A DNA stretch of 64,000 bases, from the IMG/VR virus record IMGVR_UViG_3300028833_000064, positions 32,001 to 96,000 of that record, one strand, 5' to 3'. Source of the stretch: a virus (taxonomy: Duplodnaviria; Caudoviricetes). The notes beneath the pieces were generated by a model, which had not been told where the DNA came from, did no database searches, and was given only the letters and a program-made list of their open reading frames with translations. This document shows, in pieces, positions 2,344 to 34,063 of the stretch. A program made the position numbers and the translations under genes. The stretch's first letter is position 1. The number at the start of each line of letters is the position of its first letter.

Positions 2344-2356
2344 TTTAATAAAAAAA

Positions 2357-2875
2357 ATGAAATCCAACAAACCCCCGTCCGAAAACTGGATACGAGAATT
2401 TCATAAATCGGCAGAATCGGCAACAAACTCATTGAACATAATCCTGTCCCAAATCGGATTGCACGTGGTAGAAGTCCCACACGATTTCTCAAACGGAGAT
2501 TCGAAAAAATACGGAATATTCCTACGGCACGGAAAATCATTCCACGAAAACACCATAGAAATCTCACTCAACCCAACACTCGTTTTCGAAAAACTTTCGG
2601 AACTCGGAAAGACTTCTCTCCGTGATGCACGACAGCAGGCATCTATCCTCACAGCCCACGAGACCTCCCACGGAATTATAGACCATATAAGAAAACACTA
2701 TATGGATTCAGGACTCACATACACGTCAATCGTCTCTAAAATCAAAAATAACTCACAGGAAGAGGAAAGAACTGCAAGAGACTTCTCACTGAACTTCGTC
2801 GACCCCTCCTACAAGTCTCTCCTGAGACTTTCCCTTACAGAAATCCTTGAACTCACGGTACGTGGTGAAACTTAA
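2357..2875 (+). CDS. HExxH zinc metallopeptidase-like protein (only clear plus-strand gene)
   Basis: AHETSHG plus downstream EERTARDFS; fills a gap with no good minus-strand ORF. Confidence 0.6.
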   Translation: MKSNKPPSENWIREFHKSAESATNSLNIILSQIGLHVVEVPHDFSNGDSKKYGIFLRHGKSFHENTIEISLNPTLVFEKLSELGKTSLRDARQQASILTAHETSHGIIDHIRKHYMDSGLTYTSIVSKIKNNSQEEERTARDFSLNFVDPSYKSLLRLSLTEILELTVRGET

Positions 2876-3160
2876 ATCCATGAACCCGTCTTCACCGAGA
2901 TTCCCCCCGTGAAGCATCTCAACGTATTCGTCATCCCCTATCTCGACCCTCGACGACTCGAAACTCTTGTCCAATCCGGTCAACGAATCAACACCGACCC
3001 TCATCCTACGATAGATACCAGAATAGTCGACAAACTCCACGAAAACATCAGGCATCTGACTCACGTCCTGAACGAAACCCTCGAATACCTTTCCTTGGAA
3101 AGGAACTGCAACACGGTCTCCGACATTCACGTCATACTCTATGATAAACTTGGACATCAC
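2786..3160 (-). CDS. Hypothetical protein (SH3/KOW-like N-terminus)
   Basis: VGDRVAV...EGFV pattern. Confidence 0.55.
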   Translation of the reverse strand: MMSKFIIEYDVNVGDRVAVPFQGKVFEGFVQDVSQMPDVFVEFVDYSGIYRRMRVGVDSLTGLDKSFESSRVEIGDDEYVEMLHGGNLGEDGFMDLSFTTYREFKDFCKGKSQERLVGGVDEVQ

Positions 3161-3261
3161 TCCTCCTTCTTTAAGATTTTATCAAGAACCACAGCGGCAA
3201 CATAGAATGCCGACAACGTGGCAGCCGACACTCCGAACAACTTAAATAAAAAATATTTCAT
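3157..3261 (-). CDS. 34-aa membrane peptide
   Basis: Own translation MKYFLFKLFGVSAATLSAFYVAAVVLDKILKKEE; stop overlaps the next start. Confidence 0.5.
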   Translation of the reverse strand: MKYFLFKLFGVSAATLSAFYVAAVVLDKILKKEE

Positions 3262-3265
3262 ATTA

Positions 3266-3571
3266 CTATACTTTATGTTCTTCTACAAATTTCCACCCTA
3301 TGTTCTCATAGACAATTCCTCCCATTAAGGGTGTACAATCAAACGGAACGACATCCTTGTATCCTTCAGACCTCATCCTGTCTGCCTCCTTCTTCACCTC
3401 TTCCACATCATCGTACAGTCCGACAATCCACGGAAGACCTTCTAAGTTCACTCCACTCACATCATCAAGACTACACGGAACACCATCGAAGTCGTATCCA
3501 TTACGGTCTCTATATGCTATACTATAACTTTTCTTCATCTTTTTCTCTGTGTGATTTTTCTCATCCTTCAT
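3266..3571 (-). CDS. Hypothetical protein
   Basis: Operon tiling; TAG-TAA double stop. Confidence 0.65.
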   Translation of the reverse strand: MKDEKNHTEKKMKKSYSIAYRDRNGYDFDGVPCSLDDVSGVNLEGLPWIVGLYDDVEEVKKEADRMRSEGYKDVVPFDCTPLMGGIVYENIGWKFVEEHKV

Positions 3572-6253: not shown

Positions 6254-6593
6254 CGTGTATACGTACCCAGAGTACAGAGTACCCCGATTCGGATGACAAC
6301 TTTTTGAGATAAAAATGTATATTGTTCTTCTCAAAGTTATTACGGAAAGGAAAAGGATACCCACCCTCTTTCTCTTTCTTCTCTAATAGACCCAGAATAT
6401 CCCTGAACAACTCATTCCCCCACATACTATACTCATTCGGATAAAACCTTATAAAATACTCATCATCTTTCCTCAAGTCCGAAAGCATCTTGTCAATGAC
6501 CGACAAACTCCCCTCCCTCAAAGCTTCGGCGATTTCAAGGTCTTCACCGGTCAATTCGTATTCTTCCCTTATCTTCATACTTAATATCATCAA
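6195..6593 (-). CDS. Hypothetical protein
   Basis: Operon tiling; may join the downstream frame by frameshift. Confidence 0.6.
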   Translation of the reverse strand: MMILSMKIREEYELTGEDLEIAEALREGSLSVIDKMLSDLRKDDEYFIRFYPNEYSMWGNELFRDILGLLEKKEKEGGYPFPFRNNFEKNNIHFYLKKLSSESGYSVLWVRIHDEEDYSDDIGNREKSGGGV

Positions 6594-6783
6594 TTAACAT
6601 CAGAACTATAAACACAAGAAACGAAGTGAATACCAAACACAAACCAAATGTGACAAACCAATTTATATTAAACAACTCTCCAAGCTCACACACTTTGACT
6701 GTAAAATAAATGTATGAAAATACAATAATTAAACCAATTAAATACAAAACAAAAATTAAAAACTCAGACATAATATATCCCAT
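6544..6783 (-). CDS. Small 2-TM membrane protein, family A
   Basis: INWFVTFGLCLVFTSFL..LID. Confidence 0.7.
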   Translation of the reverse strand: MGYIMSEFLIFVLYLIGLIIVFSYIYFTVKVCELGELFNINWFVTFGLCLVFTSFLVFIVLMLIDDIKYEDKGRIRIDR

Positions 6784-7251
6784 TTATTTTATGTTAAACA
6801 TTTGAAAAAAACTCCCGAAGAAACTCTTCACCACGTACCTGTTGTACGCCCTCGCTCCACTAAACACAATCAGTCTGTTGGAAACAATGTCACCGTTATT
6901 CCCCAAACAATACTCACTCCCCTTCGGAATTATACAAACAGAATTGGTGCAACCTTTCTTCAACATACTGTGAAAACCCTCACTTATAGTACTTATAGTC
7001 GTACACAATACTTCTATCTGTAAGTGATTCACAGGATACTCCTTTTTATAATGATAACAATAACCATTAATTTTATCCTTCTCAACAGCATACGTCCTTA
7101 TCTTCCTGGCGGTCTCCACTTTGTTAAATGAAAACACACCACCGAATAACGGAGGAATCCAATGGTCTCCTTTATTGATTATTTTCTTGTATACCACAAT
7201 GTCTTTCTCGGCGACACGTATGGTTTCACCATGTTTGACTGTTAAACACAT
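6784..7251 (-). CDS. Hypothetical protein, paralog of 7685-8113
   Basis: Shared MCL..VYK..EGFHSMLK..CIIPKGSEYC.G.NGD.VS..LIVF. Confidence 0.8.
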   Translation of the reverse strand: MCLTVKHGETIRVAEKDIVVYKKIINKGDHWIPPLFGGVFSFNKVETARKIRTYAVEKDKINGYCYHYKKEYPVNHLQIEVLCTTISTISEGFHSMLKKGCTNSVCIIPKGSEYCLGNNGDIVSNRLIVFSGARAYNRYVVKSFFGSFFQMFNIK

Positions 7252-7315
7252 CTCCTGTTTCCTATCTTATACTGTCAATTATTACAACAACTAAAAACAA
7301 AACTGAAAGCATAAT

Positions 7316-7507
7316 CTATCTCATTCTAATATTGTCAATTATTATAACAACAAAAAAAACCAGAATCGGAGTGAATACAAGAGAAAGAACAAATACTATG
7401 TATCGGTTAAAACCAACCAAGTACTCTGCAAACTTACCCATATCGTATGCAAACCATACATAAGCACATATCACAAGAATGAGAAAAACTAATGTTATAA
7501 AATCCAT
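7316..7507 (-). CDS. Small 2-TM membrane protein, family A
   Basis: FNRYIVFVLSLVFTPIL..IID. Confidence 0.7.
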   Translation of the reverse strand: MDFITLVFLILVICAYVWFAYDMGKFAEYLVGFNRYIVFVLSLVFTPILVFFVVIIIDNIRMR

Positions 7508-7508
7508 A

Positions 7509-7721
7509 TTATTTCTGTTTTTTATCGTTTAACTTTCTTATAATCCACAATTTCTGCTTCATCAACTTCCTCCAACTATCAGTGTGCATCCTACCTATCT
7601 TCTCCAAAGACTCCATCTTCCTCTTTACCTTATTCAACATATTCCATAAAAATTCACGTTCCTCATCCTCACACTCATCGTTGGTCATATACATCCCACT
7701 CTTCCAATCGTATCTCGCCAT
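7509..7721 (-). CDS. Hypothetical protein
   Basis: Operon tiling. Confidence 0.6.
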   Translation of the reverse strand: MARYDWKSGMYMTNDECEDEEREFLWNMLNKVKRKMESLEKIGRMHTDSWRKLMKQKLWIIRKLNDKKQK

Positions 7722-8113
7722 ATACTCTTTAATTTGAAAACTACATAATCAAACCACGTCTCGAACACAATCAACTTCACACTCACTACATCACCATTAT
7801 CACCTATACAGTACTCACTCCCCTTCGGAATGATACACGTACATACAAGGTTACCCAAATACACATCTTTTTCCTTCAACATACTGTGAAACCCCTCGTG
7901 AATAAATCTTCTATAATCAATAGACAAATGCTCTATAGGAGTTCCCATATTCATCGCCGTCTCAACTTTGTTGTAATCAAAATGTGTATAGAAACAAGGA
8001 CTACGCCAACCCGTTTCATCATCATCATCAAAATCTTCAACTACACCCTTGTATACCTTGATGTTTTTTCTCGCTTTCTCTATCTTTCCATTAATGGGAA
8101 CAAATAAACACAT
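7685..8113 (-). CDS. Hypothetical protein, paralog of 6784-7251
   Basis: Shared motifs as above. Confidence 0.8.
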   Translation of the reverse strand: MCLFVPINGKIEKARKNIKVYKGVVEDFDDDDETGWRSPCFYTHFDYNKVETAMNMGTPIEHLSIDYRRFIHEGFHSMLKEKDVYLGNLVCTCIIPKGSEYCIGDNGDVVSVKLIVFETWFDYVVFKLKSIWRDTIGRVGCI

Positions 8114-16160: not shown

Positions 16161-16607
16161 TTAGAGGTCTGTAAAAAACTGATTTTTATTAGATTCTATA
16201 AGTTCTTTGTTTTTTCGAAATATCTCACTTATTTTTTGAGATATAGTATTTTCACCGAATATAAAATAATCAGCTGCAAATACCATTTCATCATCAGAGT
16301 CTGAAGTCTTCAATTCTATAATTTTTGAGTCGATGAGTTTGACCACCATCTTATCATCAATTGTGATGAGACATTCTTTGAGATATATTGGATTGTCTAT
16401 ACATGAATTTTCAAGTGATTGTCTCAGATAATTTTGTTCTCTGAGTCTTGTCCCTTTTATTGTTAAGAACCCACGTGATAGAACATGGTATGAGTAATGA
16501 TTGAGTTCATCTATAGACTTAGCTTCGTCAATGATGATTTCTTTCAAAGGAATAACTTCACTACCGAGACGTAGTGTTAATCCGTCTTCAATAAACCTGT
16601 GTTCCAT
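16161..16607 (-). CDS. Hypothetical protein
   Basis: TAATG coupling. Confidence 0.65.
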   Translation of the reverse strand: MEHRFIEDGLTLRLGSEVIPLKEIIIDEAKSIDELNHYSYHVLSRGFLTIKGTRLREQNYLRQSLENSCIDNPIYLKECLITIDDKMVVKLIDSKIIELKTSDSDDEMVFAADYFIFGENTISQKISEIFRKNKELIESNKNQFFTDL

Positions 16608-17320
16608 TATGCCTCATATTTCTCTATGATTGGTTTGCACGTTTCAAGTACGGAGACGACTTTATCCAAGTCGAAGTAGTCGTTTGTCCGGACTCCGGAC
16701 TCCATGTCAATCCAAAAGTCTCCCGAGACATTCTCGTAGAGGTACGTAAGTTTCTCTGCACAGTTCTCTGGATTAAATCCACCGGCATACCCCACACATC
16801 CGTCGTAAGGATACAGTTGGATACCGGTATCGATTCCACGCCCACCACTGCCGTCGATGAGAACAGACAATGTGCATTTGTTCCATTCGTATTCCTTCCA
16901 CTTCTCGATGGTATTCTTCAGTATTGAGTCGTTAACTGTATCTTTCTGCTGGATGATGATTTCTTGTCCGGAGAAGATTGGTGCCCAGCAATAGTTCGGG
17001 TTGTCATCTCTTTTGGCGATGTTGAGTTGGATTCGTTTGAAGATTTCGAGATTTCTGCCGATGAGATTATCGACCTCGACCCAGAATCCCTCGGCGGCAT
17101 CACGGGAGATACTCCCACACAAATGGAGGGCGAGGTTGAGTTTCTTATCGTAAAATTTATGTATGAGACTCGGATTCAGATAACGGGGACCGTTTTCATT
17201 CCAATGCTTGCTTGCAAGAATTCCGAATTCAACAATTGGATACTCCCGCTGGATTTCCACCAGTCTGTCGATGTCTGTTTTTGAATCGACACCTGTGAAT
17301 GTTATATGTTTTAGTTTCAT
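16607..17320 (-). CDS. TIM-barrel, phosphoribosylanthranilate-isomerase(TrpF)-like
   Basis: DGSGGRG, GYAGGFNPEN, WIDMESGVR resemble PRAI phosphate-binding motifs. Confidence 0.6.
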   Translation of the reverse strand: MKLKHITFTGVDSKTDIDRLVEIQREYPIVEFGILASKHWNENGPRYLNPSLIHKFYDKKLNLALHLCGSISRDAAEGFWVEVDNLIGRNLEIFKRIQLNIAKRDDNPNYCWAPIFSGQEIIIQQKDTVNDSILKNTIEKWKEYEWNKCTLSVLIDGSGGRGIDTGIQLYPYDGCVGYAGGFNPENCAEKLTYLYENVSGDFWIDMESGVRTNDYFDLDKVVSVLETCKPIIEKYEA

Positions 17321-17658: not shown

Positions 17659-18164
17659 ATCAGTTCAAATTTGGTGTTTGATGACATAGTTCCCATTGGA
17701 ACGAAGATGGTATCGGATTCGCCGGTATACTCTTTTTTCGATATTGTGAATCGTATATAGTTACTGATATTTCTTTCCTTATATTTTATATTTTGATTGA
17801 TATGAGGATTCTCATCAGTCTCGACTATGGCCGTATATTTTGCCGGAAGAAGTTTCTGAACATAACTACTGTCAGTCTTCTTTAACATGACAATGTAGTA
17901 GAAATCTTCATCTATCTGTGTTTTGGTGAAATATATGTTTTCATTTTGTACAACCTTTGTTGCAATAATCTCATCATGAATGCTTTCCTCTACCGGTTTA
18001 AATCCCCAGTCAATCGTAAAGATTTGAGAAAGCAACCAGATTATAAGACCAATAACGCCGGTAAATGAAACACGTACTACATTGTCACGGTAATCCTTAT
18101 CGAAGTGTCCAATGACACATACAATAATGAAAGCAAATAAAAGTGAACTTAATAAAAATACCAT
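17655..18164 (-). CDS. Membrane-anchored hypothetical protein
   Basis: Two N-terminal TMs. Confidence 0.65.
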   Translation of the reverse strand: MVFLLSSLLFAFIIVCVIGHFDKDYRDNVVRVSFTGVIGLIIWLLSQIFTIDWGFKPVEESIHDEIIATKVVQNENIYFTKTQIDEDFYYIVMLKKTDSSYVQKLLPAKYTAIVETDENPHINQNIKYKERNISNYIRFTISKKEYTGESDTIFVPMGTMSSNTKFELI

Positions 18165-18181
18165 AATTGTTTTGTTTTTTG

Positions 18182-19177
18182 TTATTTACACACTTCGTCC
18201 AAAGATGCACTGAGGTGTTTCGAAAATTCTCTGTATTTCTGTGAGTCGAATATCCATCGACCCCTTTTCTCTGAACCGTAGTCAATATCCATCTCCTCGA
18301 AGATGGTGCAAGGATTGGGTTTGAGAATGAATATCTTGTTACTGATGTAGAGTGCTTCCTCCAGTGAGTGGGTGACGTTGATGATGGTATGCTCGGTCTC
18401 CTCTGCAATCTTGATGATGAGGTCTTGAATCTCACGTTTCATCTTGATGTCCAATGCACCTGTTGCTTCGTCGAGGAAAAATACCTTGCTGTTTGATGTA
18501 AGGCATCGTGCAATGGACACTCTCTGCAACTGTCCTCCGGAAAGCTTCGAAGCGTTGGCGTATTTGCCGGCGTGCTCTTCAAGTCCAACAAGCTTGAGTG
18601 TCTCCATCGCCTTTTCACGTGCATCCTTTTTGTCCATCCCTTTCAGGACCATCGGTAGCGCCACGTTGTCGATGACCGTCATCCAATGGAAAGACGAGTA
18701 ACTCTGAAATACCATCGGTACTGATTTATACTCGTCGATGTGCTGTCCGAATATTCGGATGTCACCTTTCTGTGGGGTCATTAATCCAGCGGCCATCTTC
18801 AAAATGCATGATTTACCACATCCACTACCGCCCATTATGCTGACAACTTCGGAGACCATGGGTTTGTCTTCCACCTTGAGTGAGAAGTCGTTGAAAATCT
18901 TGAACTCGTGTTTAGTACCCTCATCGAAGATATGTGTGAGATGGTCAATTTCGAAAGAATATCGTTTTCCATCATCCACAGATATTTTGGGAGATTTTTC
19001 AACCGGAGTCGAAACTGTAGTTGGAACTGTAGTTGTCACAGGAACTGTAGCCGGAACTGTAGTTGACTGGATGGGTTTCATAAATGGATTGTTGGACACC
19101 GGTACCGTAGTTTTGGTCTCAGTCGAATCCTTACTACCATCTATTGGTTTCGAAAATGCCGAAATATTTTTTTTCAT
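18182..19177 (-). CDS. ABC importer ATPase (TauB/SsuB/NrtD type)
   Basis: GGSGCGKS, MVFQ, LSGGQLQRV, FFLDEA, VTHS; T/P-rich N-terminal extension. Confidence 0.92.
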   Translation of the reverse strand: MKKNISAFSKPIDGSKDSTETKTTVPVSNNPFMKPIQSTTVPATVPVTTTVPTTVSTPVEKSPKISVDDGKRYSFEIDHLTHIFDEGTKHEFKIFNDFSLKVEDKPMVSEVVSIMGGSGCGKSCILKMAAGLMTPQKGDIRIFGQHIDEYKSVPMVFQSYSSFHWMTVIDNVALPMVLKGMDKKDAREKAMETLKLVGLEEHAGKYANASKLSGGQLQRVSIARCLTSNSKVFFLDEATGALDIKMKREIQDLIIKIAEETEHTIINVTHSLEEALYISNKIFILKPNPCTIFEEMDIDYGSEKRGRWIFDSQKYREFSKHLSASLDEVCK

Positions 19178-19179
19178 AG

Positions 19180-19989
19180 TTACTTCTTTGTGTGGGGGAA
19201 TATGATTGGTTTCAAGAAATGGAAGAGTCTGTCTTGCAGTAGTCCTATCATCACGATAACGAAGAGGAGGGCGTATATCTCCGGAGTCCTGCTCTGTCGA
19301 CTGAATGTGGAAATCATTGCACCGATTCCTCCGACTTTGTTGAGACTTTCTGCAATGACGACGTATGTGTAACTGATGGCCACAAGACTTCTGATATCAT
19401 CGTATACCTTTTCCATCACATATGGGAAGTACACATACTTGAAAGTCTGCCAGTTTGACATACCCATGGTCTTGGCCGTCTGAAGATAGACATTATCGTT
19501 CACATTGGTTGGGTTCTGCAAGTCGAGTACCTTACCGACAACGCTTGGAAGGGTGAAGATGAAGATACCGAAAGCAAGGAAGAAAGCTTTCATACCGAAG
19601 GCGAGTCCAAAGATGGAGATGAAGATTCCGGATACTGTTGGTAGCGGGAGGTATCGTAGCGCCTCAAAATATTTCCTGAACAACGAGTTGAACATAGGAA
19701 TCATTCCAATCAAGAATCCAAGCGGTATTGCAAAGAGTACGGCAATGAGGTATCCCGAGATATTCAGTGACACCGTATACCATATATTGTCCAACAAGTG
19801 GTATTTCGAGAACAAGTCCGGAACAATGGAGACAACCTTTACTGGGTTAGGGAGAATACCCGGACTGATGATTTCACCAGTCAATGTCACGAGATACCAT
19901 ATTGTTATAAGAAGTACAGCACCTATCGACCCAATAATCCTACCCTCTTTTTTCGAAATTTCCCCACCTGGTTTGAAGTACTTGTTCAT
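19180..19989 (-). CDS. ABC importer permease (TauC/SsuC type)
   Basis: About 6 TMs, RYLP, EAA-like YLQTAKTMG, YVVIAE. Confidence 0.9.
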   Translation of the reverse strand: MNKYFKPGGEISKKEGRIIGSIGAVLLITIWYLVTLTGEIISPGILPNPVKVVSIVPDLFSKYHLLDNIWYTVSLNISGYLIAVLFAIPLGFLIGMIPMFNSLFRKYFEALRYLPLPTVSGIFISIFGLAFGMKAFFLAFGIFIFTLPSVVGKVLDLQNPTNVNDNVYLQTAKTMGMSNWQTFKYVYFPYVMEKVYDDIRSLVAISYTYVVIAESLNKVGGIGAMISTFSRQSRTPEIYALLFVIVMIGLLQDRLFHFLKPIIFPHTKK

Positions 19990-20003
19990 TTGATTTCTTT
20001 TTT

Positions 20004-20089
20004 AAAAGGGGGTCGTGACTCTGACCCCCTTTTCATGTTAAACCATTTTTACCCTTTTTTTGGAGGGGAGTCAGAACGACCCCCCTCTC
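20004..20089 (-). terminator. Two tandem hairpins between SBP and permease
   Basis: AAAAGGGGGTC..GACCCCCTTTT and GAGGGGGAGTC..GACCCCCTCTC. Confidence 0.6.
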
Positions 20090-20101
20090 TGTTGTATATT
20101 G

Positions 20102-21634
20102 TTATCGTTGAACCAGCTTCATACTTGTGGTACGGTATTTCTGATTGCTTCCGACGACTCCATCCGAGATTGCACGTTTGGGACCGTTACCCTCGACGAT
20201 GAATCGATTTTTATCTACACCTTGACGACTGAGATAGTTTGCCACACTCTGAGCACGCTGCTTGGACAGTTCAATGTTGTGCTGATAGCTGCCGGTGTTG
20301 TCTGTGTTACCCTCGATTCGGACATAGCAGTTGTTGAACTGTTTGATGATAGGAAGCATCTCACGCTCGATGATAGTCTCTGCATCGACGCTCAATTCAC
20401 TCCCATCGACGGGGAACTCGATAACCACTTCCTTGTCAGAGAATGCTTCGGTAGATTTGACTTGCATCGACGGGGCGGCAAACTTACGTTTAGCGGTACC
20501 CTTTGCAGTCTGGTCATTGGTAAGGTTATTGCTTTTCATCAGAGATTCGATGATAGATGTCTCAGAGATTGTACGCCACGGCATGGTTGCCTTTGCAAGA
20601 CCGATTTCACCGTACACCTGACTCATCTTGGTATAGAGTTTCTCACCGGTGATTTCATCGTATTCAGTGTTCAGACCGAACCAGTTGATGTTGTCTTCGA
20701 GAGTAGCGAAGTTAATCTTGCTGCCGACTGTCAGAACATCCTCCTCCGGAACGTCGAACTCTTTGGCGAACACGTGACATACTTCCTTATACGTCTCGGG
20801 GTTGTTCATCTCCGAATTTGCCCACAGAAGTGCTTCCACAATCTTTTTTGCAGTTTCGGGATTTTCTTTCAACCATTCCTCGTGAGCAAGGAAACCATCG
20901 GTTACAAGGGTCTGGATATCTTTGGTGCTTACCAGGACGTGTGTGCCGGTAGGACCATCCTTGATACAAGCGTCGTCATCGGGACAGAATACCACTGCTG
21001 CATCAGCAGTACCCGCCTTGAACGCCGTTGCAACGTCGGAACCATATCCAGTCGTGATAATCTGCACGTCACTGTTGGAAAGACCATTGGCAGCGAGAGT
21101 ATTGAGTAGGAGAGAATGTGATGCTGTACCTTCCGAGCAGACGATTTTCTTTCCCTTCAAATCCGCCACTCTCTTGATGTTCTTGGTTGCCACGATTGCA
21201 TCTGCACCGGCACTGAAGTTGTGAATCATAAAATAACGGGCGTCTGTCATAGTGCCGGACTGGCTTGCCTCCACGGGATACGAGTCAAGGGTGCAGAAAC
21301 GGAGGGCGTTCTTGTGTTCCTTGAAGTAAGCAGTTGCTCCATCGAAGTCATCCATCTGGATAATCTTGAGGCGGATACCGAAACGCTTGTAGAACTCAGA
21401 CTCCTTGCTTCCGTCTTTGCCTCCGTTGAAAGTGACGAATGGTGCCCAACCTGTATAGGTGTCCACGAGCACGTAGGCGTCGTACTTACTGTTACCGCCG
21501 ACAAGTTTGCCGAGATTGATTCCCGAGTTTTTGGTCCCGAAGAAGACTGCTGCACCGAGCAGACCTACAGCGAGAACGATTGTTAATAGACGGCCGAAAC
21601 CCGTCAATTTTGAAAAAGTGCTTTTGATACTCAT
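20102..21634 (-). CDS. ABC substrate-binding protein (NMT1/SsuA-like) fused to C-terminal OmpA peptidoglycan-binding domain
   Basis: N-terminal TM; SAGADAIVA..LKGKKI..GTASH; IEGNTDNTG..NIELSKQRAQSVANYL. Confidence 0.88.
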   Translation of the reverse strand: MSIKSTFSKLTGFGRLLTIVLAVGLLGAAVFFGTKNSGINLGKLVGGNSKYDAYVLVDTYTGWAPFVTFNGGKDGSKESEFYKRFGIRLKIIQMDDFDGATAYFKEHKNALRFCTLDSYPVEASQSGTMTDARYFMIHNFSAGADAIVATKNIKRVADLKGKKIVCSEGTASHSLLLNTLAANGLSNSDVQIITTGYGSDVATAFKAGTADAAVVFCPDDDACIKDGPTGTHVLVSTKDIQTLVTDGFLAHEEWLKENPETAKKIVEALLWANSEMNNPETYKEVCHVFAKEFDVPEEDVLTVGSKINFATLEDNINWFGLNTEYDEITGEKLYTKMSQVYGEIGLAKATMPWRTISETSIIESLMKSNNLTNDQTAKGTAKRKFAAPSMQVKSTEAFSDKEVVIEFPVDGSELSVDAETIIEREMLPIIKQFNNCYVRIEGNTDNTGSYQHNIELSKQRAQSVANYLSRQGVDKNRFIVEGNGPKRAISDGVVGSNQKYRTTSMKLVQR

Positions 21635-21664
21635 AGTTTTTTGATTTTTGAAATGTTGATATTT

Positions 21665-21925
21665 TTATTTGTTGTTATTATGTTTGTTTCTTAAATCTTC
21701 GAGAAACTTCTCATGTTTCTTGTGCTCAGATTTGTTGTGTTTCAACAAAACCAAAAAGATGGTCAATCCGATGGTCAGAAGAATTGCAGCCGTAATCCAT
21801 ATCGGTGATAGCACCCACCACCAAGACCAGTCGATTACATTACAAAGCTTGAGAATGATGAAGGTAATGGTCAAAAGACCGACGAACCCGATTCCACCAC
21901 TTGTTGTTGTTTTTGATTCACTCAT
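21665..21925 (-). CDS. Small membrane protein
   Basis: GGIGFVGLLTI.FI.LKL..VIDWSWWWVLSPIWI. Confidence 0.75.
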   Translation of the reverse strand: MSESKTTTSGGIGFVGLLTITFIILKLCNVIDWSWWWVLSPIWITAAILLTIGLTIFLVLLKHNKSEHKKHEKFLEDLRNKHNNNK

Positions 21926-21954
21926 TTTTTTTTTCTTTTGATTTCTTATATTTA

Positions 21955-21966
21955 AAAGATACTATT
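21955..21966 (-). promoter_or_regulatory. Class II promoter-like motif
   Basis: AATAGTATCTTT heading the ABC operon. Confidence 0.65.
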
Positions 21967-22002
21967 TTTTTTTCGGTATTTTCGAAAAATGAAGAATATT
22001 TT

Positions 22003-26990: not shown

Positions 26991-27677
26991 TTATTTTTTA
27001 TTTTTTTTTTTCTTATTTTCGGCACTACGGTCTCTTATTCCACGGAAAAGAGCCATGCTCCATTCGGAGATTTGCTGTGGAGTGATGGGGACAATCTCAC
27101 GGTTCAACCATTCGTCTTCCGTCATCCCGTCGATGTTGATGAACATATCGTGCTTAAGATTCTTTACAATGGTTTCCGAGTGGGTGATGACAACAACCCC
27201 GTAGCAGTTGCCGAGATATTTTTCGAAAATTTCGTTGAGATAATTGCAGATACCCACTTGCATCTCACGGCTCATTCCGATTTCAATCTCATCTATGACG
27301 ATGAATGCTTTTTTATTGTCACGGTTTTTTTCGTCTTCCTTGATGACGAGACTGTTCATCATGCTGACGATTGTACCTACCGAGGCGTTGGAAGTGCTGT
27401 CCCATGGGAGGTCGGACAGCATGTGGTCGAGTCCGGTTCCAAACAGTGAACTGCATCCGTTGGTTCTTTTCTCCATCGAGATGGTGGCGATTGGACTCTT
27501 GTCGAGTCCGAGTTTCTCCATTATGGTAAATACGAGTTGTTTTCTAACTACAGATTTACCTGACGAGTTGCTTCCTGTCAGGATGGTCACTTTACCCGGT
27601 TCGATTGATTTGGTGACATCGACGATTCGGTCGATGTGGTTGCTAATATGTTCTGACGATAAATTTGTATAATCCAT
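26991..27677 (-). CDS. Stand-alone ABC/SMC-type ATPase
   Basis: GSNSSGKS, IVIDEIE, VITHS. Confidence 0.75.
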   Translation of the reverse strand: MDYTNLSSEHISNHIDRIVDVTKSIEPGKVTILTGSNSSGKSVVRKQLVFTIMEKLGLDKSPIATISMEKRTNGCSSLFGTGLDHMLSDLPWDSTSNASVGTIVSMMNSLVIKEDEKNRDNKKAFIVIDEIEIGMSREMQVGICNYLNEIFEKYLGNCYGVVVITHSETIVKNLKHDMFINIDGMTEDEWLNREIVPITPQQISEWSMALFRGIRDRSAENKKKKNKK

Positions 27678-29096: not shown

Positions 29097-29288
29097 TCAA
29101 CCTACGTTTTCAAGTATGTATTGTATCAATATTTCTTTTGGAATTTGGTCAAGCATTTCCCTTGCTTTCTTTTTGTTTGCTTCGATGCCTTCAATTGGGA
29201 GACGCTGAGCCACGATAGCAGAACCCTCTTCTACAACCTTATGTTCTCTTCTGTATAGAGATACTGCTGCTTTTATCTTGTCGTTCAT
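29097..29288 (-). CDS. Hypothetical protein
   Basis: ATGA overlap. Confidence 0.6.
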   Translation of the reverse strand: MNDKIKAAVSLYRREHKVVEEGSAIVAQRLPIEGIEANKKKAREMLDQIPKEILIQYILENVG

Positions 29289-29836
29289 TTGATTACGTTT
29301 TTTTCGAGTATATCCAAATCAAGGTTTTCGAAAATCTGCATGAATTTTTCAAACTCCGGATTTCTCCAAGCGTTCATGCAGTATGGTCTTGGTTTAGAAT
29401 AGTGGTACCAATTTGTTTTGATGTGTTCTTCGGCCGCTCGTTTAGTCAGGAAGCAACCGGTTTTGTCTGATATTTTTTCATACGCCTCATACTCGTGGGT
29501 ATCGACGATTCTATTGAGGTATTGTCGTGCAAATCCAAGTACATCTTCTTCGAATACTTTATTGATGTGTTTCCATTTGATGCAGATGTCTGCCGGCATG
29601 TCTGACAGGAAATTCTCTTCGATGTATTCGGCATAATCCTCAATCGAGTTGAAAACTCTGATGTCGTGTGTCGAATCTATAATCTTGATACAATCTCCAC
29701 AACCTTCTTCGGTGGGGCGCTCCCCCGATTCCATTATTCCCCAGAATCGGGGGGCGGCCGTACCTTCTGTGCTCTGTTCTCTGAGTTCCTTCTGTAGGGA
29801 TTTCAGAAAGTCAAGCTCTTCTTTTGTCATAATCAA
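29285..29836 (-). CDS. Hypothetical phage protein
   Basis: TAAPRFW..FLTKRAAEEHI..AWRNPE. Confidence 0.7.
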   Translation of the reverse strand: MIMTKEELDFLKSLQKELREQSTEGTAAPRFWGIMESGERPTEEGCGDCIKIIDSTHDIRVFNSIEDYAEYIEENFLSDMPADICIKWKHINKVFEEDVLGFARQYLNRIVDTHEYEAYEKISDKTGCFLTKRAAEEHIKTNWYHYSKPRPYCMNAWRNPEFEKFMQIFENLDLDILEKNVIK

Positions 29837-30939
29837 CCTCCGAAATATGACGACTTGTGAGTTTCTCCTGATGTGGAGGCGGGAATAGATTCCGGGGTTT
29901 TAACCTCGGAGAACTCTATCGTCTCGGGTTGAGTTCCGGCACCGATGGCCTGATGGGTGAAACTGATGTTACCGGTGTCTTCAACTGGTTTGTCAAAAAT
30001 TCCAAACCCATTCTTTTCAAAGTCGGCCATAATCTGATTGGCCTTGTCCAAGTTAATGTCGGAGTTGATTTCGAAATTCATCAGGATGTCGTTACTTCCG
30101 TCGATGAGTCTGTTGATTTCGGCAATTGACTGATTGATGGTATCGTTCACAGTCTTCATGGCGAGTTCCTGTTCCATAGAGGAAGTAAGAATACCATGCA
30201 TGATGGAGTTGATGTTTTTCATCGCCGTGCTCTGTGCCACTGCTTGCTCATACTCCTCCACTCGGAAGTCGTGTTCATTCTGAGCATCCTGCACTTTATA
30301 TCCAACAGCAATTTGGAGTTTCTGCATCACTTTCAGATACTTCTCCGAAGTCTGAATTCTTGCACGCTGATTCTCGATTTGCTTCTTGCCTCGGACAATT
30401 TCGTTAGAGACTAATTGAAGCTGAGCCATGAGTTTGGTTCTCTCACTCTGGTCGGTAGTACTCCTGAGTTTGTTTTCGATTGCTGTTTTTTTACGGACGT
30501 TGTTTTCGAAATTCTCTTCGTACTCTTTCAACTTCCGTTTCATTCTTACAAGGATGCTGCCGAGATTCGTCACATTCTTATCTATGATTTGAAGTTTTTC
30601 CTTCATCTCACGGATACCGTTTTCAAGGATGGCGATGGGGTCGATATTGACCACAAGTCCATATACTTTCCTCATAATCTGTAACCACAACAGACTGATA
30701 AGTCTTCGAGTCTTCTTGTTGGTCACGATATAGACGATGGCGGCGATGGCGGCAAGTTCGGCGACGAAAAGAAGCAGGTTTGCTGTTGCTGCAATGAGGA
30801 ACGGGAGTGCAAACTTGAAAAATGCATATCCGATTCCGAGCATTGCCAGTATACCGGTCAGTTTAGCGAACCCACCACCGGGTCTTTTCCACAATTCCTT
30901 GAATTTGTCTTTGGGTTGAAGGGCTACACTGTTGTCCAT
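29833..30939 (-). CDS. Membrane-anchored PspA/IM30 (ESCRT-III)-like coiled-coil protein
   Basis: N-terminal TMs, then IDPIAILENGIREMKEKL (PspA DPxxxLEQxIREM-like) and a long coiled coil. Confidence 0.55.
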   Translation of the reverse strand: MDNSVALQPKDKFKELWKRPGGGFAKLTGILAMLGIGYAFFKFALPFLIAATANLLLFVAELAAIAAIVYIVTNKKTRRLISLLWLQIMRKVYGLVVNIDPIAILENGIREMKEKLQIIDKNVTNLGSILVRMKRKLKEYEENFENNVRKKTAIENKLRSTTDQSERTKLMAQLQLVSNEIVRGKKQIENQRARIQTSEKYLKVMQKLQIAVGYKVQDAQNEHDFRVEEYEQAVAQSTAMKNINSIMHGILTSSMEQELAMKTVNDTINQSIAEINRLIDGSNDILMNFEINSDINLDKANQIMADFEKNGFGIFDKPVEDTGNISFTHQAIGAGTQPETIEFSEVKTPESIPASTSGETHKSSYFGG

Positions 30940-30957
30940 ATTTTTCCTTTCTTGTGT

Positions 30958-31641
30958 TTAAATTGTTAATGATTCGATTTTCTGACGGTCAGTGTTCAGA
31001 ACATCCAGCACAGACTGGATGGAGGCGTTGAACGTCATTCGGTTGTTGTTGATTTCAACCTTTGCTGCTTGCATTGCCATGTTCTTCTGACCGATTTCAT
31101 CCATGAGGGCATCATATTCTGCCTTCATCTGCTGGGCATGGGTTTGCATCTCTGCTATCTCTGCCTCCACACTGGAAACTCTTTCGTGCTCCAATTTGTC
31201 CAACTCACCGAGTCCTGTCTGTTTCTCGGTCTCCACCACACCAAGGTAGAAGTCGATTGCCTGTAGGATGGCGGTCTTGTCGAAGTTCGGGTATTGTCCT
31301 TTCAACACATTGAAGGCTGCCGAAATCTTCTGCTCCAATGTGATTGGGAGACTGTCCAAACTTTGCAGGGTCGTCTTGAGTTCGAGATAGTCGGGACCCG
31401 GCCGGTTCTGGGCGATGATTGCATTCCAAATTCTGTCGATGATGTTTTTGTCTGCCACTGCTGTCGGGGCGGCCCCAGTCTGCTCGATGGTCGCTGTCGG
31501 GGCGAAACTTGTCGAAATTGAACCCATTGAACTCACCGGAATCTGAGCACTTACATTTGTGTTGTCTTGGACAACCTCTTTCGATACTGGTGGGTCTTCC
31601 TTGATGAGAGCTCTTTTGATTGCTTTTCCTATTGATGCCAT
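30958..31641 (-). CDS. Coiled-coil protein, putative partner of the PspA-like gene
   Basis: Disordered N-terminus, PGPDYLEL motif, C-terminal coiled coil. Confidence 0.7.
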   Translation of the reverse strand: MASIGKAIKRALIKEDPPVSKEVVQDNTNVSAQIPVSSMGSISTSFAPTATIEQTGAAPTAVADKNIIDRIWNAIIAQNRPGPDYLELKTTLQSLDSLPITLEQKISAAFNVLKGQYPNFDKTAILQAIDFYLGVVETEKQTGLGELDKLEHERVSSVEAEIAEMQTHAQQMKAEYDALMDEIGQKNMAMQAAKVEINNNRMTFNASIQSVLDVLNTDRQKIESLTI

Positions 31642-31679
31642 TTTATTTCTTTTTAATCGTTAGACAATTGTGTTGATTG

Positions 31680-32342
31680 TTAGAAAGCGAGGCGGGCGAC
31701 CAACCAGGGCTGGAAGTTCCAACTACCTTTTCCGTGAATGGAGAGTTTGGCAGGATTGTCGGTCACGTTGAAGAGCATGAGATTCACACCAACATGTACC
31801 ATAGGGGTAATCTTGTAATACACCTTCTGCTCGGTACAGAGATTGAATGTGTTCGGACCCCACGTGTCGAGATAACCCTCGTAGTAGATGTGGTCGAAGT
31901 CGGCGCTGCTATTGATGGAAAACTGCCAATTGTGGCCGCTGCCAAAGTCGTATCGGTACATAGGGGTGAGACTGAAACAGAAGTTACCCAGCAAGAGTTC
32001 GTATGCAAAACCGGCGTTAATCATATTATGGTCGGGCCAGTACATGGCGGTGGGAACCTTGAAGTCTGGAAAATCTGATGTCCGGAATCGGGTCTCCAAG
32101 TGTCCGAGGAAGTGGGAACCGGCGATTCGGTACTCTCCGTAGAGGATGCCGTAACCCACGGCCTGGTTGTTGGTCACTGTGAACTCATTGTACGAATACA
32201 CGTTGAAGTTGCTGTCTGACTTGAAAAAGTCGGCGACGAATTTCTGATTCCCGTCATAGGACTGATGCCACTGAATACTCTGGGCGTTTGCTGCTGTTGC
32301 CATCACAAAGACGGCGATGATTGTGAAAAGAACTTTCTTCAT
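31680..32342 (-). CDS. Outer-membrane beta-barrel (DUF5020/Tsx-like channel?)
   Basis: Signal peptide ANA-Q, aromatic alternating strands, C-terminal Phe (ARLAF). Confidence 0.65.
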   Translation of the reverse strand: MKKVLFTIIAVFVMATAANAQSIQWHQSYDGNQKFVADFFKSDSNFNVYSYNEFTVTNNQAVGYGILYGEYRIAGSHFLGHLETRFRTSDFPDFKVPTAMYWPDHNMINAGFAYELLLGNFCFSLTPMYRYDFGSGHNWQFSINSSADFDHIYYEGYLDTWGPNTFNLCTEQKVYYKITPMVHVGVNLMLFNVTDNPAKLSIHGKGSWNFQPWLVARLAF

Positions 32343-32386
32343 TTTTTTGTGTTTTTTGATGTTTGTTATTTTATTTTTTTCGAAAA

Positions 32387-32716
32387 TTATCCGATGTTAT
32401 CGACTTCGATTTCTTCTTCCCTAACGAAAGTCACACTTTGACTCTTCACCCAGAGGGGGGCGTCTACATCCTGTTGCAGATGATGTCCGTCCCATTGAAG
32501 ACAGTTGTCGAAAGGAAGACCAGGAAGATGGTTGTCAAGCGGGATGATGCAGGGTGTACCTTGTACGATGATGAGTTGACCCTCTATCCATTCGTTGTTC
32601 CAACGTTGTGCCTTGAATATTTGAACCTTTATTTTCATTTGTCTTTCCTTTCGTTTAAAAGATACTATTATTTTTCGAAAGATTAGAATTTTTTTTTTTC
32701 TCATTGAAGTCCCCAT
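32387..32716 (-). CDS. YopX-N-like hypothetical protein (likely start MKIKVQ)
   Basis: FKAQR..NEWIEGQL. Confidence 0.55.
   Translation of the reverse strand: MGTSMRKKKILIFRKIIVSFKRKERQMKIKVQIFKAQRWNNEWIEGQLIIVQGTPCIIPLDNHLPGLPFDNCLQWDGHHLQQDVDAPLWVKSQSVTFVREEEIEVDNIG
32658..32669 (-). promoter_or_regulatory. Class II promoter-like motif
   Basis: AATAGTATCTTT heading the OMP/PspA operon. Confidence 0.65.
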
Positions 32717-32733
32717 CGTGAGACGGGGACTTC
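32706..32733 (-). terminator. Rho-independent terminator
   Basis: GAAGTCCCC-ATCGTGAGAC-GGGGACTTC. Confidence 0.7.
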
Positions 32734-32745
32734 AGTATAGAGATA

Positions 32746-33555
32746 TTATTTACATCTACGGCACTTGGTGGTGAGTTCACCGGAACACATCAAGAAGTAG
32801 TTATCCCAAGCTTTTACTGCCGGACTGTTAGCGGTACTGGGACCACTCTTGTGTTTGGCGATGGCCTTCAACCACTTGTCCATAGGATGGTTATCACGGT
32901 ATTTGTACCACGACTTGGCCATTGCCTCAAGGTTGGCTCTGGTGGGCATCCAACCGATGGTCTTGAGGATGAGTTTGAGTTCGTCATGTACTTGGTCGGC
33001 CAGAGGAACATCATTTATGGGGAAGACGTATTGTTTGTTTTTCAACTGATTTTCTTTACGTCCTTTTCCGAGAAGGGCTGCACCGGCACGATACCTAGGT
33101 ACGTTGTTTTCGTCGTGCAGCAGTTCATGTTCCAAGCAGAACGTCTGAAGCATTCTATAGTTCTCGTTACCAGCTGTGATGTTTGAAATCACAAAGTCTT
33201 CAGTTGTCCAACCAGTTCTGTCTTTGTTGATGGTTTGGATGTACTCCACTTCTTGTTCGGCTGGAATCTTCACGAAGCGTACTGGTACGGTCGTATCGGA
33301 TGGTAGACCACCGTCGTTGACCTTTGTTATGAAACCAACCTTTCGTCCTGCACCATCGGTGATGTTGTTGGTCATAAGATTGACTTCGATGGGCTGGACC
33401 TGTGCCCAGACTTTGTTCTCGGCGTCATATATCTTCTTGATAATACTCCTCACCCTTGCAGGCTTGACCTGACGATTTTGGGGGTTAAAATTGAATTGGT
33501 TCAATTCTTCGGCTGTGCAACGAGCGTCACCACAATATTCAACTTGGATATTCAT
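32746..33555 (-). CDS. ParB/Srx-like N-terminal domain protein
   Basis: NPQNR.V..RV..I, PIEVN, ITDGAGR, IN..RTGW. Confidence 0.6.
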   Translation of the reverse strand: MNIQVEYCGDARCTAEELNQFNFNPQNRQVKPARVRSIIKKIYDAENKVWAQVQPIEVNLMTNNITDGAGRKVGFITKVNDGGLPSDTTVPVRFVKIPAEQEVEYIQTINKDRTGWTTEDFVISNITAGNENYRMLQTFCLEHELLHDENNVPRYRAGAALLGKGRKENQLKNKQYVFPINDVPLADQVHDELKLILKTIGWMPTRANLEAMAKSWYKYRDNHPMDKWLKAIAKHKSGPSTANSPAVKAWDNYFLMCSGELTTKCRRCK

Positions 33556-33592
33556 AGGTTCAATTTTTTATTTGTTTTTTTACTTATGTTTA

Positions 33593-33604
33593 AAAGATAC
33601 TATT
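33593..33604 (-). promoter_or_regulatory. Class II promoter-like motif
   Basis: AATAGTATCTTT. Confidence 0.65.
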
Positions 33605-33658
33605 TTATTTTTATTTTATTTGAAAATCTTATTTTTTTTTTTGTAAGAATTTTCGAAA

Positions 33659-34063
33659 TTAGTCGATTTTCCCAACCTCAGTCAGAAGTATCTCTGGGTT
33701 CTCATAGGATACTGTGCCTCCCCAGTAGTCAAGTTCCTTCATTTCCATATTGTCGATGTCGAGTTCCACGACACTCAGACGGAATGAGATTGCTTTACGG
33801 CCAGCACCAAATTCACCGATTCTATAAATTTCGAATGGGGGATATTTTTTCCCATCACTCAACAATGCCGGTTTCTCATTGATGATACTCTTGATAATTT
33901 CGACAGCATCCTTTCTTGATTCTATAATATGGGCATCGGCTAATTTTGCCGTATTCCACCACCCGTAGGTAAATGAAAGGAATCCCGTTTCGGTCTCATT
34001 GTTAGCCTTATCATAGACATATACTCTGATGAAGTAAGACTTCTTTGCTCTCTTGTTTCTCAT
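33659..34063 (-). CDS. Hypothetical protein
   Basis: Tiling. Confidence 0.65.
   Translation of the reverse strand: MRNKRAKKSYFIRVYVYDKANNETETGFLSFTYGWWNTAKLADAHIIESRKDAVEIIKSIINEKPALLSDGKKYPPFEIYRIGEFGAGRKAISFRLSVVELDIDNMEMKELDYWGGTVSYENPEILLTEVGKID

Follow-up and report, generated by a model that had tools for sequence, protein, structure and literature searches.

PspA and Vipp1 (IM30, PF04012) are the bacterial ESCRT-III proteins, and nearly all mechanistic work on them has been carried out on soluble forms. They attach peripherally to the membrane via an amphipathic helix, alpha0, and are otherwise soluble. In the LiaI-LiaH and PspBC-PspA systems, it is a separate small integral membrane element that tethers the PspA-type polymer.

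Bacterial operons that contain PspA, a membrane-anchored divergent Snf7, PBPB+OmpA and ABC genes have been described (Ravi lab, mSystems 2024, PMC11237479; section 18 and Table S3; example accessions OGG56892.1, AKJ06548.1 and CBH24266.1), and a link between remodelling and solute transport was proposed for them. In huge phages (>200 kb, mostly gut), PspA has been reported in 184 genomes (Yuan & Chen, October 2026, bioRxiv 10.64898/2026.10.24.761521), with 15 of the PspA genes beside complete ABC transporters and ten beside a two-TM transporter binding protein; the largest groups were Bacillota-like PspAs beside Ca-ATPase/TerD or SPFH genes, and 18% of huge phages, Lak phages among them, had outer-membrane barrels. 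Both themes of the present work, the bacterial operon type and huge-phage PspA beside ABC transporters, are already published in these two sources.

Here, we analyse a 64,000-nucleotide stretch of DNA (the window) from a huge Bacteroidales phage, in which a 368-aa membrane-anchored PspA/IM30-like protein is encoded directly downstream of a 227-aa helical protein, hereafter the partner. With PspA and Vipp1 the 368-aa protein shares a colinear match from alpha1 to alpha5 and a long hairpin followed by two shorter helices, but it is predicted to be integral to the membrane via an N-terminal hairpin, is about 140 aa longer than PspA and falls below the Pfam threshold. It has no PspF/PspBC, LiaI or Band-7 partner and is accompanied instead by the dedicated 227-aa protein. 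The functional logic would be that of LiaI-LiaH and PspBC-PspA, except that anchor and PspA-like domain are joined in one polypeptide; domain scans returned no LiaI, PspB or PspC homology.

By their description, the operons of PMC11237479 resemble the window family in encoding a protein whose ESCRT-III-like domain is preceded by two hydrophobic segments at the N-terminus, and in linking it to genes for an ABC permease, an ATPase and a solute-binding protein fused to OmpA; Salinibacter has, in addition, an Rmar_0091-like coiled-coil protein encoded immediately before the anchored one, as the partner is here. They differ in gene order and in that a canonical PspA and a double AAA+ ATPase are adjacent, whereas in the 94 loci compared here no canonical PspA ORF lay within about 7 kb, no double AAA+ ATPase within 7 kb, and no AAA+ gene in the called neighbourhoods. 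The candidates of Yuan & Chen were Pfam-confirmed; the 368-aa protein fails Pfam and could have been either included in that set or missed, and their text makes no mention of a membrane anchor, the partner family or a chromosomal Bacteroidota cassette.

Organization of the locus

A first-pass annotation of the window had described a run of three genes for a putative outer-membrane barrel, a GPDYLE coiled-coil protein and a TM protein, and three minus-strand genes were confirmed exactly where it had placed them: 220 aa (32342..31680), 227 aa (31641..30958) and 368 aa (30939..29833), in this order, with intergenic gaps of 38 nt and 18 nt. They are taken to be real genes because many homologues were found for all three. 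GPDYLE occupies residues 82-87 of the 227-aa protein and DPIAILENGIREM residues 100-112 of the 368-aa protein, and the roughly 200 aa of coiled coil ascribed to the latter agree with an AlphaFold2 (AF2) model that is helical over 101-316. A 183-aa ORF (29285..29836, minus strand) overlaps the 368-aa gene by 4 nt; it has no Pfam match, and its homologues occur only in the closest relatives (loci L006 and L009). A blastn search with the region found no match among deposited phages.

The phage-specific motif AATAGTATCTTT is found 11 times, as exact copies on the minus strand of the window, where 0.67 would be expected, and is likely to be a phage promoter or operator element. One copy (32658..32669, minus strand) heads the PspA run, 19 nt ahead of the ATG of an 83-aa ORF that is the run's first gene (32387..32638, minus strand; in-frame ATG at 32638) and is contained within a listed 109-aa ORF. 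Another (21955..21966, minus strand) is upstream of an ABC operon. As nine other operons are also headed by AATAGTATCTTT, its presence at both the PspA-run and the ABC operon indicates shared timing at most. Both operons have a GC content of 0.43-0.46, above most of the window. Between 28.8 and 33 kb, scanning for sigma-70 promoters and terminators returned fewer sites than shuffled sequence; such a scan is uninformative for a Bacteroidota phage.

The ABC genes lie about 8 kb downstream of the PspA pair, with small genes between, and form in one operon a NitT/TauT-type importer set. These are a 510-aa NMT1/SsuA-like binding protein with a C-terminal, peptidoglycan-binding OmpA domain (SBP-OmpA; 20102..21634, minus strand; PF09084 at 4.8e-18, PF00691 at 3.1e-16, NCBIfam SsuA/Tau/urea-type), a 269-aa BPD_transp_1 permease, TauC/SaoP-like (19180..19989, minus strand; PF00528 at 2.7e-07), and a 331-aa ATPase of NitT/TauT type (18182..19177, minus strand; PF00005 at 1.4e-26). 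The NCBIfam matches of the three genes are SsuA/Tau/Sao-type and all stay under the equivalog cut-offs.

Homology of the 368-aa protein to PspA/IM30

On profile evidence, the 368-aa protein is a genuine, though divergent, homologue of PspA/IM30 and belongs to the ESCRT-III superfamily. A 52-sequence alignment of its family (the TM-PspA family) was compared by hhalign with 26 canonical PspAs from Bacteroidota and E. coli genes; plasmid-borne PspA homologues were too uniform to be used. The two alignments matched with a probability of 96.0% (score 69.0, E 4.2e-9) in 189 columns that are colinear, family positions 96-299 falling on PspA 34-230. The match covers alpha1 to alpha5, from the conserved DP with which alpha1 begins as far as PspA residue 215. 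Controls gave 1.5-20% overall and reversed alignments 1.5-3%, while 40 heptad-block shuffles had a mean score of 20.1 (sd 4.2, maximum 31.7) against the real 69.0. A multi-sequence PspA alignment was needed because E. coli PspA alone gave 2% against the family. The residues D100 and P101 of the 368-aa protein are invariant or nearly so across the TM family, in which P20, G22 and P46 are also conserved.

A Bacteroidota PspA HMM run against every ORF of the 94 loci returned 41 matches (best 9e-7), all of them to the gene of the 368-aa family, and matched no other coiled-coil ORF. The window protein itself gave no PF04012 match at E<=1. Among family members the best PF04012 scores were 16.7-24.5 bits, none reaching the gathering score of 33.9 bits; cellular members gave matches between 4e-5 and 2e-3 that began, without exception, at profile position 22-23, and the sub-threshold matches kept an identical register every time. 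PDB sequences, searched both with a single sequence and with a profile, yielded nothing but noise of the keratin, SNARE and tropomyosin type, Vipp1 coming in at E 0.27. The TM-PspA family has no model in Pfam, NCBIfam or PHROGs. An affinity to Snf7 was not found: in five carrier genomes no family gene matched PF03357 at E<=1, nor did this model appear in the Pfam scans, and the Pfam models lean to PspA over Snf7.

Predicted fold and membrane anchor

The AF2 model of the 368-aa protein, of moderate confidence (pLDDT 69.7, pTM 0.46), contains a long alpha1-alpha2/3 hairpin (helices 101-160 and 164-244) and two further helices (254-290 and 294-316), then a disordered tail. Foldseek searches with this model placed Vipp1 at ranks 1, 2, 3, 5, 6 and 9, covering the whole chain, at weak E-values of 2e-3 to 1e-2 and with SMC, YscO and axonemal long hairpins close behind. 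With VIA-align, CHMP4B, Shrub and Snf7 reached Z 10.0-10.8, tied with many unrelated hairpins, and wide searches with the models of the 368-aa protein and the partner returned generic hairpins only, among which ESCRT-III was indistinguishable from the others. The first-pass annotation had made its PspA/ESCRT-III-like assignment depend on an alpha1-alpha2 hairpin in the predicted fold and on polymerisation. That hairpin is present in the model and, with the hhalign probability and the leading rank of Vipp1, supports the assignment.

The claimed membrane anchoring is likewise borne out: the PspA-like domain is preceded by two hydrophobic stretches (residues 25-45 and 51-73, approximately) with 5 and 6 basic residues at their flanks. 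They are predicted to form a TM hairpin (25-73) followed by a basic juxtamembrane helix in the alpha0 position (75-96), which has 6 K/R, no D/E and a hydrophobic moment of 0.4-0.5.

The partner and the putative barrel

The partner gene that had been proposed is real and conserved, being found directly upstream of the TM-PspA gene in 56 of 72 cellular loci (78%) and in 13 of 14 phage/metagenome loci. Its product is modelled by AF2 (pLDDT 84.5, about 95 over residues 61-227) as an N-terminal amphipathic helix (1-12), a disordered linker (13-60), three short helices bearing the G-DY-E motif and a C-terminal long helical hairpin (122-171/176-224). Across the partner family, D84, E87, Y132, E139 and F204 are invariant and G82 and Y85 are conserved at 90% or more. 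Foldseek found nothing significant for the partner, the best being MakE/AhlC at E 0.065-0.17. That the partner might itself be a PspA was considered and rejected (hhalign 3%, the same as the reversed control); aligned with the TM-PspA family, it gave 52.6% (E 1.4e-4) over 72 columns.

The 220-aa protein is probably a small outer-membrane beta-barrel, as suggested by a C-terminal Phe (...ARLAF), 19% aromatic residues and a signal peptide of Sec type that ends ANA|Q. Its language-model neighbours, at 0.95-0.97, are DUF5020, DUF6733 and KdgM/NanC porin clusters, with 11% of the members of the DUF5020 neighbour cluster carrying DUF5020. There were 37 homologue clusters, no Pfam match in 18 homologues and no PDB sequence match. 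Homologues were present in 7 of 14 phage/metagenome loci and in none of 80 cellular loci; five loci have the homologue placed between the SBP-OmpA and permease genes, and those of other phages adjoin the ABC binding protein. The first-pass reading of this gene as an outer-membrane barrel thus has indirect support. The putative barrel was rejected as an original member of the cassette on its absence from the 80 cellular loci, and is a phage-lineage addition.

Distribution and gene context

At 50% identity, the TM-PspA family falls into at least 1,264 clusters. It is chromosomal in at least 557 Bacteroidota/Chlorobiota species, where the neighbours of the cassette are ordinary housekeeping genes, and it was also found in 15 of 15 Lak megaphage records, in Ralstonia phage RsoM2USA and in a 735-kb phage. 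In profile scans of genome contigs, a mid-range family alignment gave matches and a close-family alignment found nothing; the broad family alignment had no conserved stretch with which to seed the scan. Canonical PspA is present as a separate gene in some carrier genomes, and at least one carrier, Flavilitoribacter nigricans DSM 23189, is in culture. The genes RsoM2USA_54 and RsoM2USA_55 are currently annotated 'hypothetical protein'. Phage TM-PspA copies fall on long branches, apart from most cellular ones, which may be rate artefacts.

The family is not a phage invention. The view that PspA-type proteins are normally soluble and host-encoded, on which the first-pass annotation relied, misses this large chromosomal membrane-anchored family, and because the anchored form is chromosomal there, the anchor is inherited rather than a phage innovation. 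Also missed was the most consistent context of the pair, a peptidoglycan-tethered binding protein with an ABC permease and ATPase. SBP-OmpA is downstream of the TM-PspA gene in 28 of 70 cellular loci (40%) and 12 of 14 phage/metagenome loci, immediately so in Lak-A1, Lak-B2, LR756501 and most related loci, and the full colinear cassette (pair, SBP-OmpA, permease, ATPase) occurs in Lak-A1, Lak-B2 and LR756501. The permease and ATPase are not nearby in 75% of assessable cellular loci, and in Flavilitoribacter the TM-PspA gene is followed by holA, without transporter genes. The pair can work without a transporter, since SBP-OmpA is adjacent in only 40% of cellular loci. No linkage to defence or anti-defence genes was seen in the conserved neighbourhood.

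Discussion

The explanation that we favour, and hold to be probable, is that an anchored divergent PspA and its dedicated partner form the core of a captured Bacteroidota/Chlorobiota cassette and shape the inner membrane near an importer. An N-terminal two-helix hairpin (N-in, C-in) would keep the 368-aa protein permanently on the cytoplasmic side of the inner membrane, with its basic amphipathic helix taking the place of PspA alpha0, and the protein would work with the helical partner encoded immediately upstream. The pair would be the core of an old chromosomal cassette that often continues with an NMT1-OmpA fusion and a NitT/TauT-type permease and ATPase, and that appears to have been captured by huge phages (the window phage, all Lak megaphages, the 735-kb phage and RsoM2USA). 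One phage lineage would have added the small secreted putative outer-membrane barrel, and in the window genome about 8 kb of small genes would have come to split the pair from the ABC genes. Homology, gene linkage, distribution and the signals of topology are direct results of the analysis; by analogy with PspA/Vipp1, the 368-aa protein may polymerise on the membrane, and the polymer may stabilise or reshape the inner membrane around the importer during a long infection cycle, with the partner regulating or nucleating assembly and the PspA-pair and ABC operons acting together.

It could be argued instead that the pair is mainly an accessory of the ABC importer, an anchored scaffold and adaptor that cluster, gate or position the binding protein and permease and that, in phages with the added putative barrel, serve trans-envelope uptake of a sulfonate-, nitrate- or urea-class solute. 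The position of SBP-OmpA directly after the TM-PspA gene in Lak-A1, Lak-B2, LR756501 and 12 of the 14 phage/metagenome loci, the five loci with a barrel homologue between SBP-OmpA and permease, the AATAGTATCTTT common to both operons and the remodelling-transport link proposed in PMC11237479 all speak for this, but SBP-OmpA is not adjacent in 60% of the assessable cellular loci and in 75% there is no permease and ATPase nearby, and we consider it rather unlikely. We know of no ABC importer that needs an ESCRT-III-like subunit. That the PspA likeness is coiled-coil convergence, and the protein a generic anchored coiled coil without ESCRT-III ancestry or behaviour, appears highly improbable. The absent Pfam match of the window protein, the coiled-coil noise of the PDB searches and the 52.6% hhalign value against the unrelated coiled-coil partner do point to a coiled-coil background that is not negligible; none of the 40 heptad-preserving shuffles, however, came near the real score, the match is colinear over 189 columns, all independent sub-threshold Pfam matches share one register, the PspA HMM picks the TM-PspA gene alone among the ORFs of 94 loci, and Vipp1 heads the Foldseek list.

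PspA/Vipp1 proteins are able to seal membranes that leak and to remodel lipid bilayers, which would suit a role in counter-defence or takeover, along the lines first proposed: a putative module would help the infected cell to stay energised despite pore-forming effectors of abortive infection or holin-like damage, or would build an internal membrane compartment. Retention of the gene in many independent huge-phage lineages agrees with such a role, and long phage branches apart from most cellular copies are as expected of phage-adapted genes, but these branches may be rate artefacts, the conserved neighbourhood carries no defence or anti-defence linkage, and at least 557 bacterial species carry this cassette on the chromosome among housekeeping genes; we regard this role as quite unlikely. 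Also unlikely, in our estimate, is a bolder arrangement in which huge phages install a self-encoded trans-envelope device, composed of an added outer-membrane channel, a tethered binding protein, an ABC permease/ATPase and an ESCRT-III-type polymer, anchored in the inner membrane, that together with its adaptor would organise or shape the membrane patch housing the device. If true, an ESCRT-III-like protein would for the first time be seen to organise a transporter structurally, and the phage would have built an envelope domain of its own.

Under the favoured explanation of a captured cassette, the TM-PspA pair belongs to a little-studied bacterial cassette that is usually linked to a cell-wall-tethered ABC importer. 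A defensible name is now available for 'hypothetical protein' genes such as the two of RsoM2USA. The family is large, permanently anchored by prediction and has an obligate-looking partner, and a cultured carrier makes experiments tractable. Its retention in independent huge-phage lineages suggests that envelope maintenance or uptake may be limiting during infection.

Genome setting and operon organization

The three genes form a run on the minus strand that encodes, in order, a putative 220-aa barrel protein (31680-32342), a 227-aa partner (30958-31641) and a 368-aa PspA-like protein (29833-30939). The ORF listing of the window confirmed the three ORFs and the order given in the first-pass annotation, as well as both of the motifs quoted there (GPDYLE at partner residues 82-87 and a second motif at residues 100-112 of the 368-aa protein). 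The intergenic gaps within the run are 38 and 18 nt and the next gene overlaps by 4 nt, a spacing that points to a single transcription unit. A terminator scan found no terminator-like site on the coding strand of this operon.

The window covers bases 32001-96000 of its source IMG/VR virus record, which is 185,388 bp in length and about 63% complete (CheckV). Nearly all ORFs of the window lie on the minus strand, tRNAs are absent from it, and no nucleotide match to it was found among deposited phages. The record is regarded as a fragment of a huge phage because close relatives of the studied genes occur on contigs of 100-400 kb. The nearest named relatives of the 368-aa gene belong to the Lak megaphages of Prevotella and one member of the anchored family is filed under a Prevotella MAG, from which we infer a Bacteroidales host.

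A phage-specific 12-mer, AATAGTATCTTT, occurs in 11 exact copies on the minus strand (window positions 2332, 8141, 14119, 21955, 32658, 33593, 40773, 43784, 48479, 59867 and 62407), which is the coding strand in each case; 0.67 copies would be expected by chance. The copy at 32658 lies 19 nt ahead of the ATG of an 83-aa ORF, itself followed by the barrel gene, and another is located ahead of the ABC transporter genes of the window. The element is probably a promoter or other regulatory signal of the phage that serves one temporal class. The GC content of the ABC and PspA-like operons (18001-22000 and 30001-34000) is 0.43-0.46, compared to 0.30-0.40 across much of the window, which is compatible with either acquisition from a GC-richer source or different constraints.

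Relationship of the 368-aa protein to PspA

Standard searches with the 368-aa protein spoke against a relationship to PspA: Pfam family PF04012 gave no match, PHROGs returned nothing useful and PDB sequence searches returned coiled-coil noise. Within the anchored family, sub-threshold PF04012 matches were obtained for 7 of 23 members in one set and for more in further sets, in which the invariant Asp-Pro always coincides with the start of alpha1 (profile position 22-23). Cellular members were picked by PF04012 in the same register at 4e-5 to 2e-3 in whole-genome scans. A family alignment of 52 sequences was then compared using hhalign with 26 canonical PspA sequences, comprising E. coli PspA, YjfJ and 24 Bacteroidota genes found with PF04012. 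The match had a probability of 96.0% (E 4.2e-9) over 189 colinear columns and extended to residue 215 of the 222 in E. coli PspA. Reversed alignments gave 1.5-3%, and 40 alignments shuffled in 7-column blocks, a procedure that preserves coiled-coil character, had a mean score of 20.1 (sd 4.2) and reached at most 31.7, while the unshuffled alignment scored 69.0. When all ORFs of at least 80 aa in 94 loci were searched with the PspA HMM, the anchored PspA-like gene alone was matched and the other coiled-coil ORFs were not.

The AlphaFold2 model (pLDDT 69.7) contains a long hairpin (residues 101-160 and 164-244) followed by helices at 254-290 and 294-316. Vipp1 chains, covered end to end, occupied Foldseek ranks 1, 2, 3, 5, 6 and 9, with E values of only 2e-3 to 1e-2; in VIA-align, hairpins of various families scored against the model without separation. 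Snf7 (PF03357) did not match the anchored family. Since several of the deeper comparisons agree, namely hhalign above its controls, the PF04012 register, the PspA HMM, Foldseek and the predicted fold, the relationship to PspA proposed in the first-pass annotation is upheld, and sequence profiles and modelling together identify the protein as a genuine though divergent homologue in the PspA/IM30 branch of the ESCRT-III superfamily.

Ahead of the PspA-like domain are two hydrophobic segments (residues 25-45 and 51-73) linked by a conserved Leu-Pro-Phe turn, with 5 and 6 basic residues on either side. These basic flanks predict an N-in/C-in hairpin, which would leave the PspA-like domain in the cytoplasm. 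In place of the alpha0 of PspA, residues 75-96 form a basic helix that has no acidic residue.

Distribution of the anchored family

A word-based search recovered 79 clusters of the anchored family and an exhaustive profile search recovered 1,264 representatives at 50% identity, 927 of them at E ≤ 1e-10. Nearly all are full-length proteins of 320-360 aa, and none of those examined has a useful name. When one genome was scanned for each species, at least 557 of them proved to carry the family. The carriers include Saprospiraceae, Lewinellaceae, Bacteroidales, Chitinophagales, Cytophagales, Marinifilaceae and Chlorobiota, and one is the isolate Flavilitoribacter nigricans DSM 23189. An even sample of Bacteroidota yielded 10 carriers in 301 genomes, six of which (sampled genomes G003, G072, G076, G136, G148 and G212) have two paralogues at separate places. 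Canonical PspA was present in 43 of 121 sampled genomes, and some genomes hold both forms.

Among deposited phages, the anchored gene is carried by all 15 Lak records (~27% identity, E ~5e-27), by Ralstonia phage RsoM2USA (gene 54) and by a 735-kb uncultured phage. A quick maximum-likelihood analysis separated most phage copies, as a single group with long branches, from 80 cellular sequences (SH-aLRT 89 and 95) and placed LR756501 and locus L015 within Saprospiraceae; both placements are unsure because of the long branches.

The partner protein

Counting only loci where the contig allows judgement, the anchored gene is immediately preceded by a partner homologue in 56 of 72 cellular loci and in 13 of the 14 loci from phages or metagenomes, four of these 14 being near-identical places with the same protein. 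Residues D84, E87, Y132, E139 and F204 are invariant down to 17% identity, and G82 and Y85 nearly so. In the confident structure model (pLDDT 84.5), an N-terminal amphipathic helix (hydrophobic moment 0.69) is connected by a disordered linker to three short motif-bearing helices, which are followed by a long hairpin. Pfam and NCBIfam hold no family for the partner, and its model had no significant structural match. The possibility that the partner is itself PspA-like was rejected, as its probability of 3% was the same as that of its own reversed control.

The pair is also encoded by genes 55 and 54 of RsoM2USA (L137, positions 6257-7822; partner E 6.6e-11, anchored PspA-like protein E 5.9e-77). 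Both are annotated as 'hypothetical protein', and the host of this phage is proteobacterial. Gene 52 of the same phage has a weak match (9.6e-5) to the substrate-binding protein described below.

The ABC transporter cassette and the putative barrel

In close and distant relatives alike, the genes after the anchored one encode a binding protein of the NMT1/SsuA type fused to an OmpA domain (SBP-OmpA), a BPD_transp_1 permease and an ABC ATPase. Using family HMMs, SBP-OmpA was located within 1.2 kb in 28/70 cellular and 12/14 phage loci, and the permease with the ATPase in 14/56 cellular and 4/4 phage loci. The whole colinear set is present in LR756501 and in Lak-A1 and Lak-B2, the latter two read with TAG as Gln. 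In the window, the three transporter genes (18182-21634, minus strand) lie about 8 kb downstream of the PspA-like operon. The 8-kb insert encodes a 228-aa protein (26991-27677, minus strand) with weak AAA_15/AAA_21 (AbiEii-like/ABC-type ATPase) matches. Just past the ABC operon lies a gene for a 237-aa protein (16607-17320, minus strand) with a weak, sub-threshold match to PRA isomerase (PF00697, E 2.2e-4).

The flanks of the cassette were also inspected on related contigs. On the 106-kb contig L008 (1-4239 and 10714-11077) they are densely packed with genes for envelope and uptake functions: a TonB-dependent receptor, an AAA_28 protein, an NMN transporter, a VWA protein and Band_7 (SPFH). The cassette itself is identical in L002/L005 and L003/L004, and the region upstream is variable (1-3123 vs 1-3229), encoding an EcoRI-type restriction enzyme, a D12 methyltransferase and an HATPase_c_3 protein in some contigs and a ClpP-like protease with a different methyltransferase in others. 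In L007, genes for thymidylate synthase, DNA methylase, DHFR, a DUF4406 protein and dUTPase/dCTP deaminase lie just upstream (1-3389) and an IF-1-like gene lies downstream, a gene content typical of huge phages.

The 220-aa protein is a putative barrel on the basis of its signal peptide, C-terminal Phe, composition and language-model neighbours; Pfam and PDB searches with it returned nothing. Of 14 phage or metagenome loci, 7 encode a homologue, compared with none of the 80 cellular loci. The barrel gene comes before the partner gene in L006 and L009, as in the window, and lies between SBP-OmpA and the permease in L002-L005 and L008. These counts and positions indicate that the barrel was added in a phage lineage and accompanies the cassette rather than the PspA-like gene itself. 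The first-pass interpretation is upheld in part: the PspA homology, the anchor and the conserved partner stand, but the barrel does not belong to the ancestral cassette.

Comparison with published systems and proposed role

A survey of huge phages reported 189 pspA genes in 184 phages, with 15 of them adjacent to a complete ABC transporter, and found barrels in 18% of huge phages; its text does not mention the anchor, the partner or the Bacteroidota cassette (Yuan & Chen, bioRxiv 10.64898/2026.10.24.761521). The cassette is likewise not described by Popp et al. (PMC9239133), and no experimental work on the anchored PspA-like cassette was found in the literature. Compared by description with the published bacterial operons (Ravi lab, mSystems 2024, PMC11237479), the present cassette differs in gene order, has no separate PspA or AAA+ ATPase nearby, and its anchored protein leans to PspA over Snf7. 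This kind of system has already been noted twice in surveys, and the present cassette adds a member.

Having established the homology, topology signals, linkage and distribution of the cassette, we propose that the cytoplasmic domain would polymerise on the inner membrane in the manner of PspA and Vipp1. The built-in anchor would make membrane association constitutive instead of stress-triggered, and the partner may control or seed assembly of the polymer. The role in counter-defence or in building a membrane compartment suggested by the first-pass annotation is possible but less likely. Over the course of a long infection by the phage, the pair may serve to keep the inner membrane sound, or to organise it around the imported transporter.
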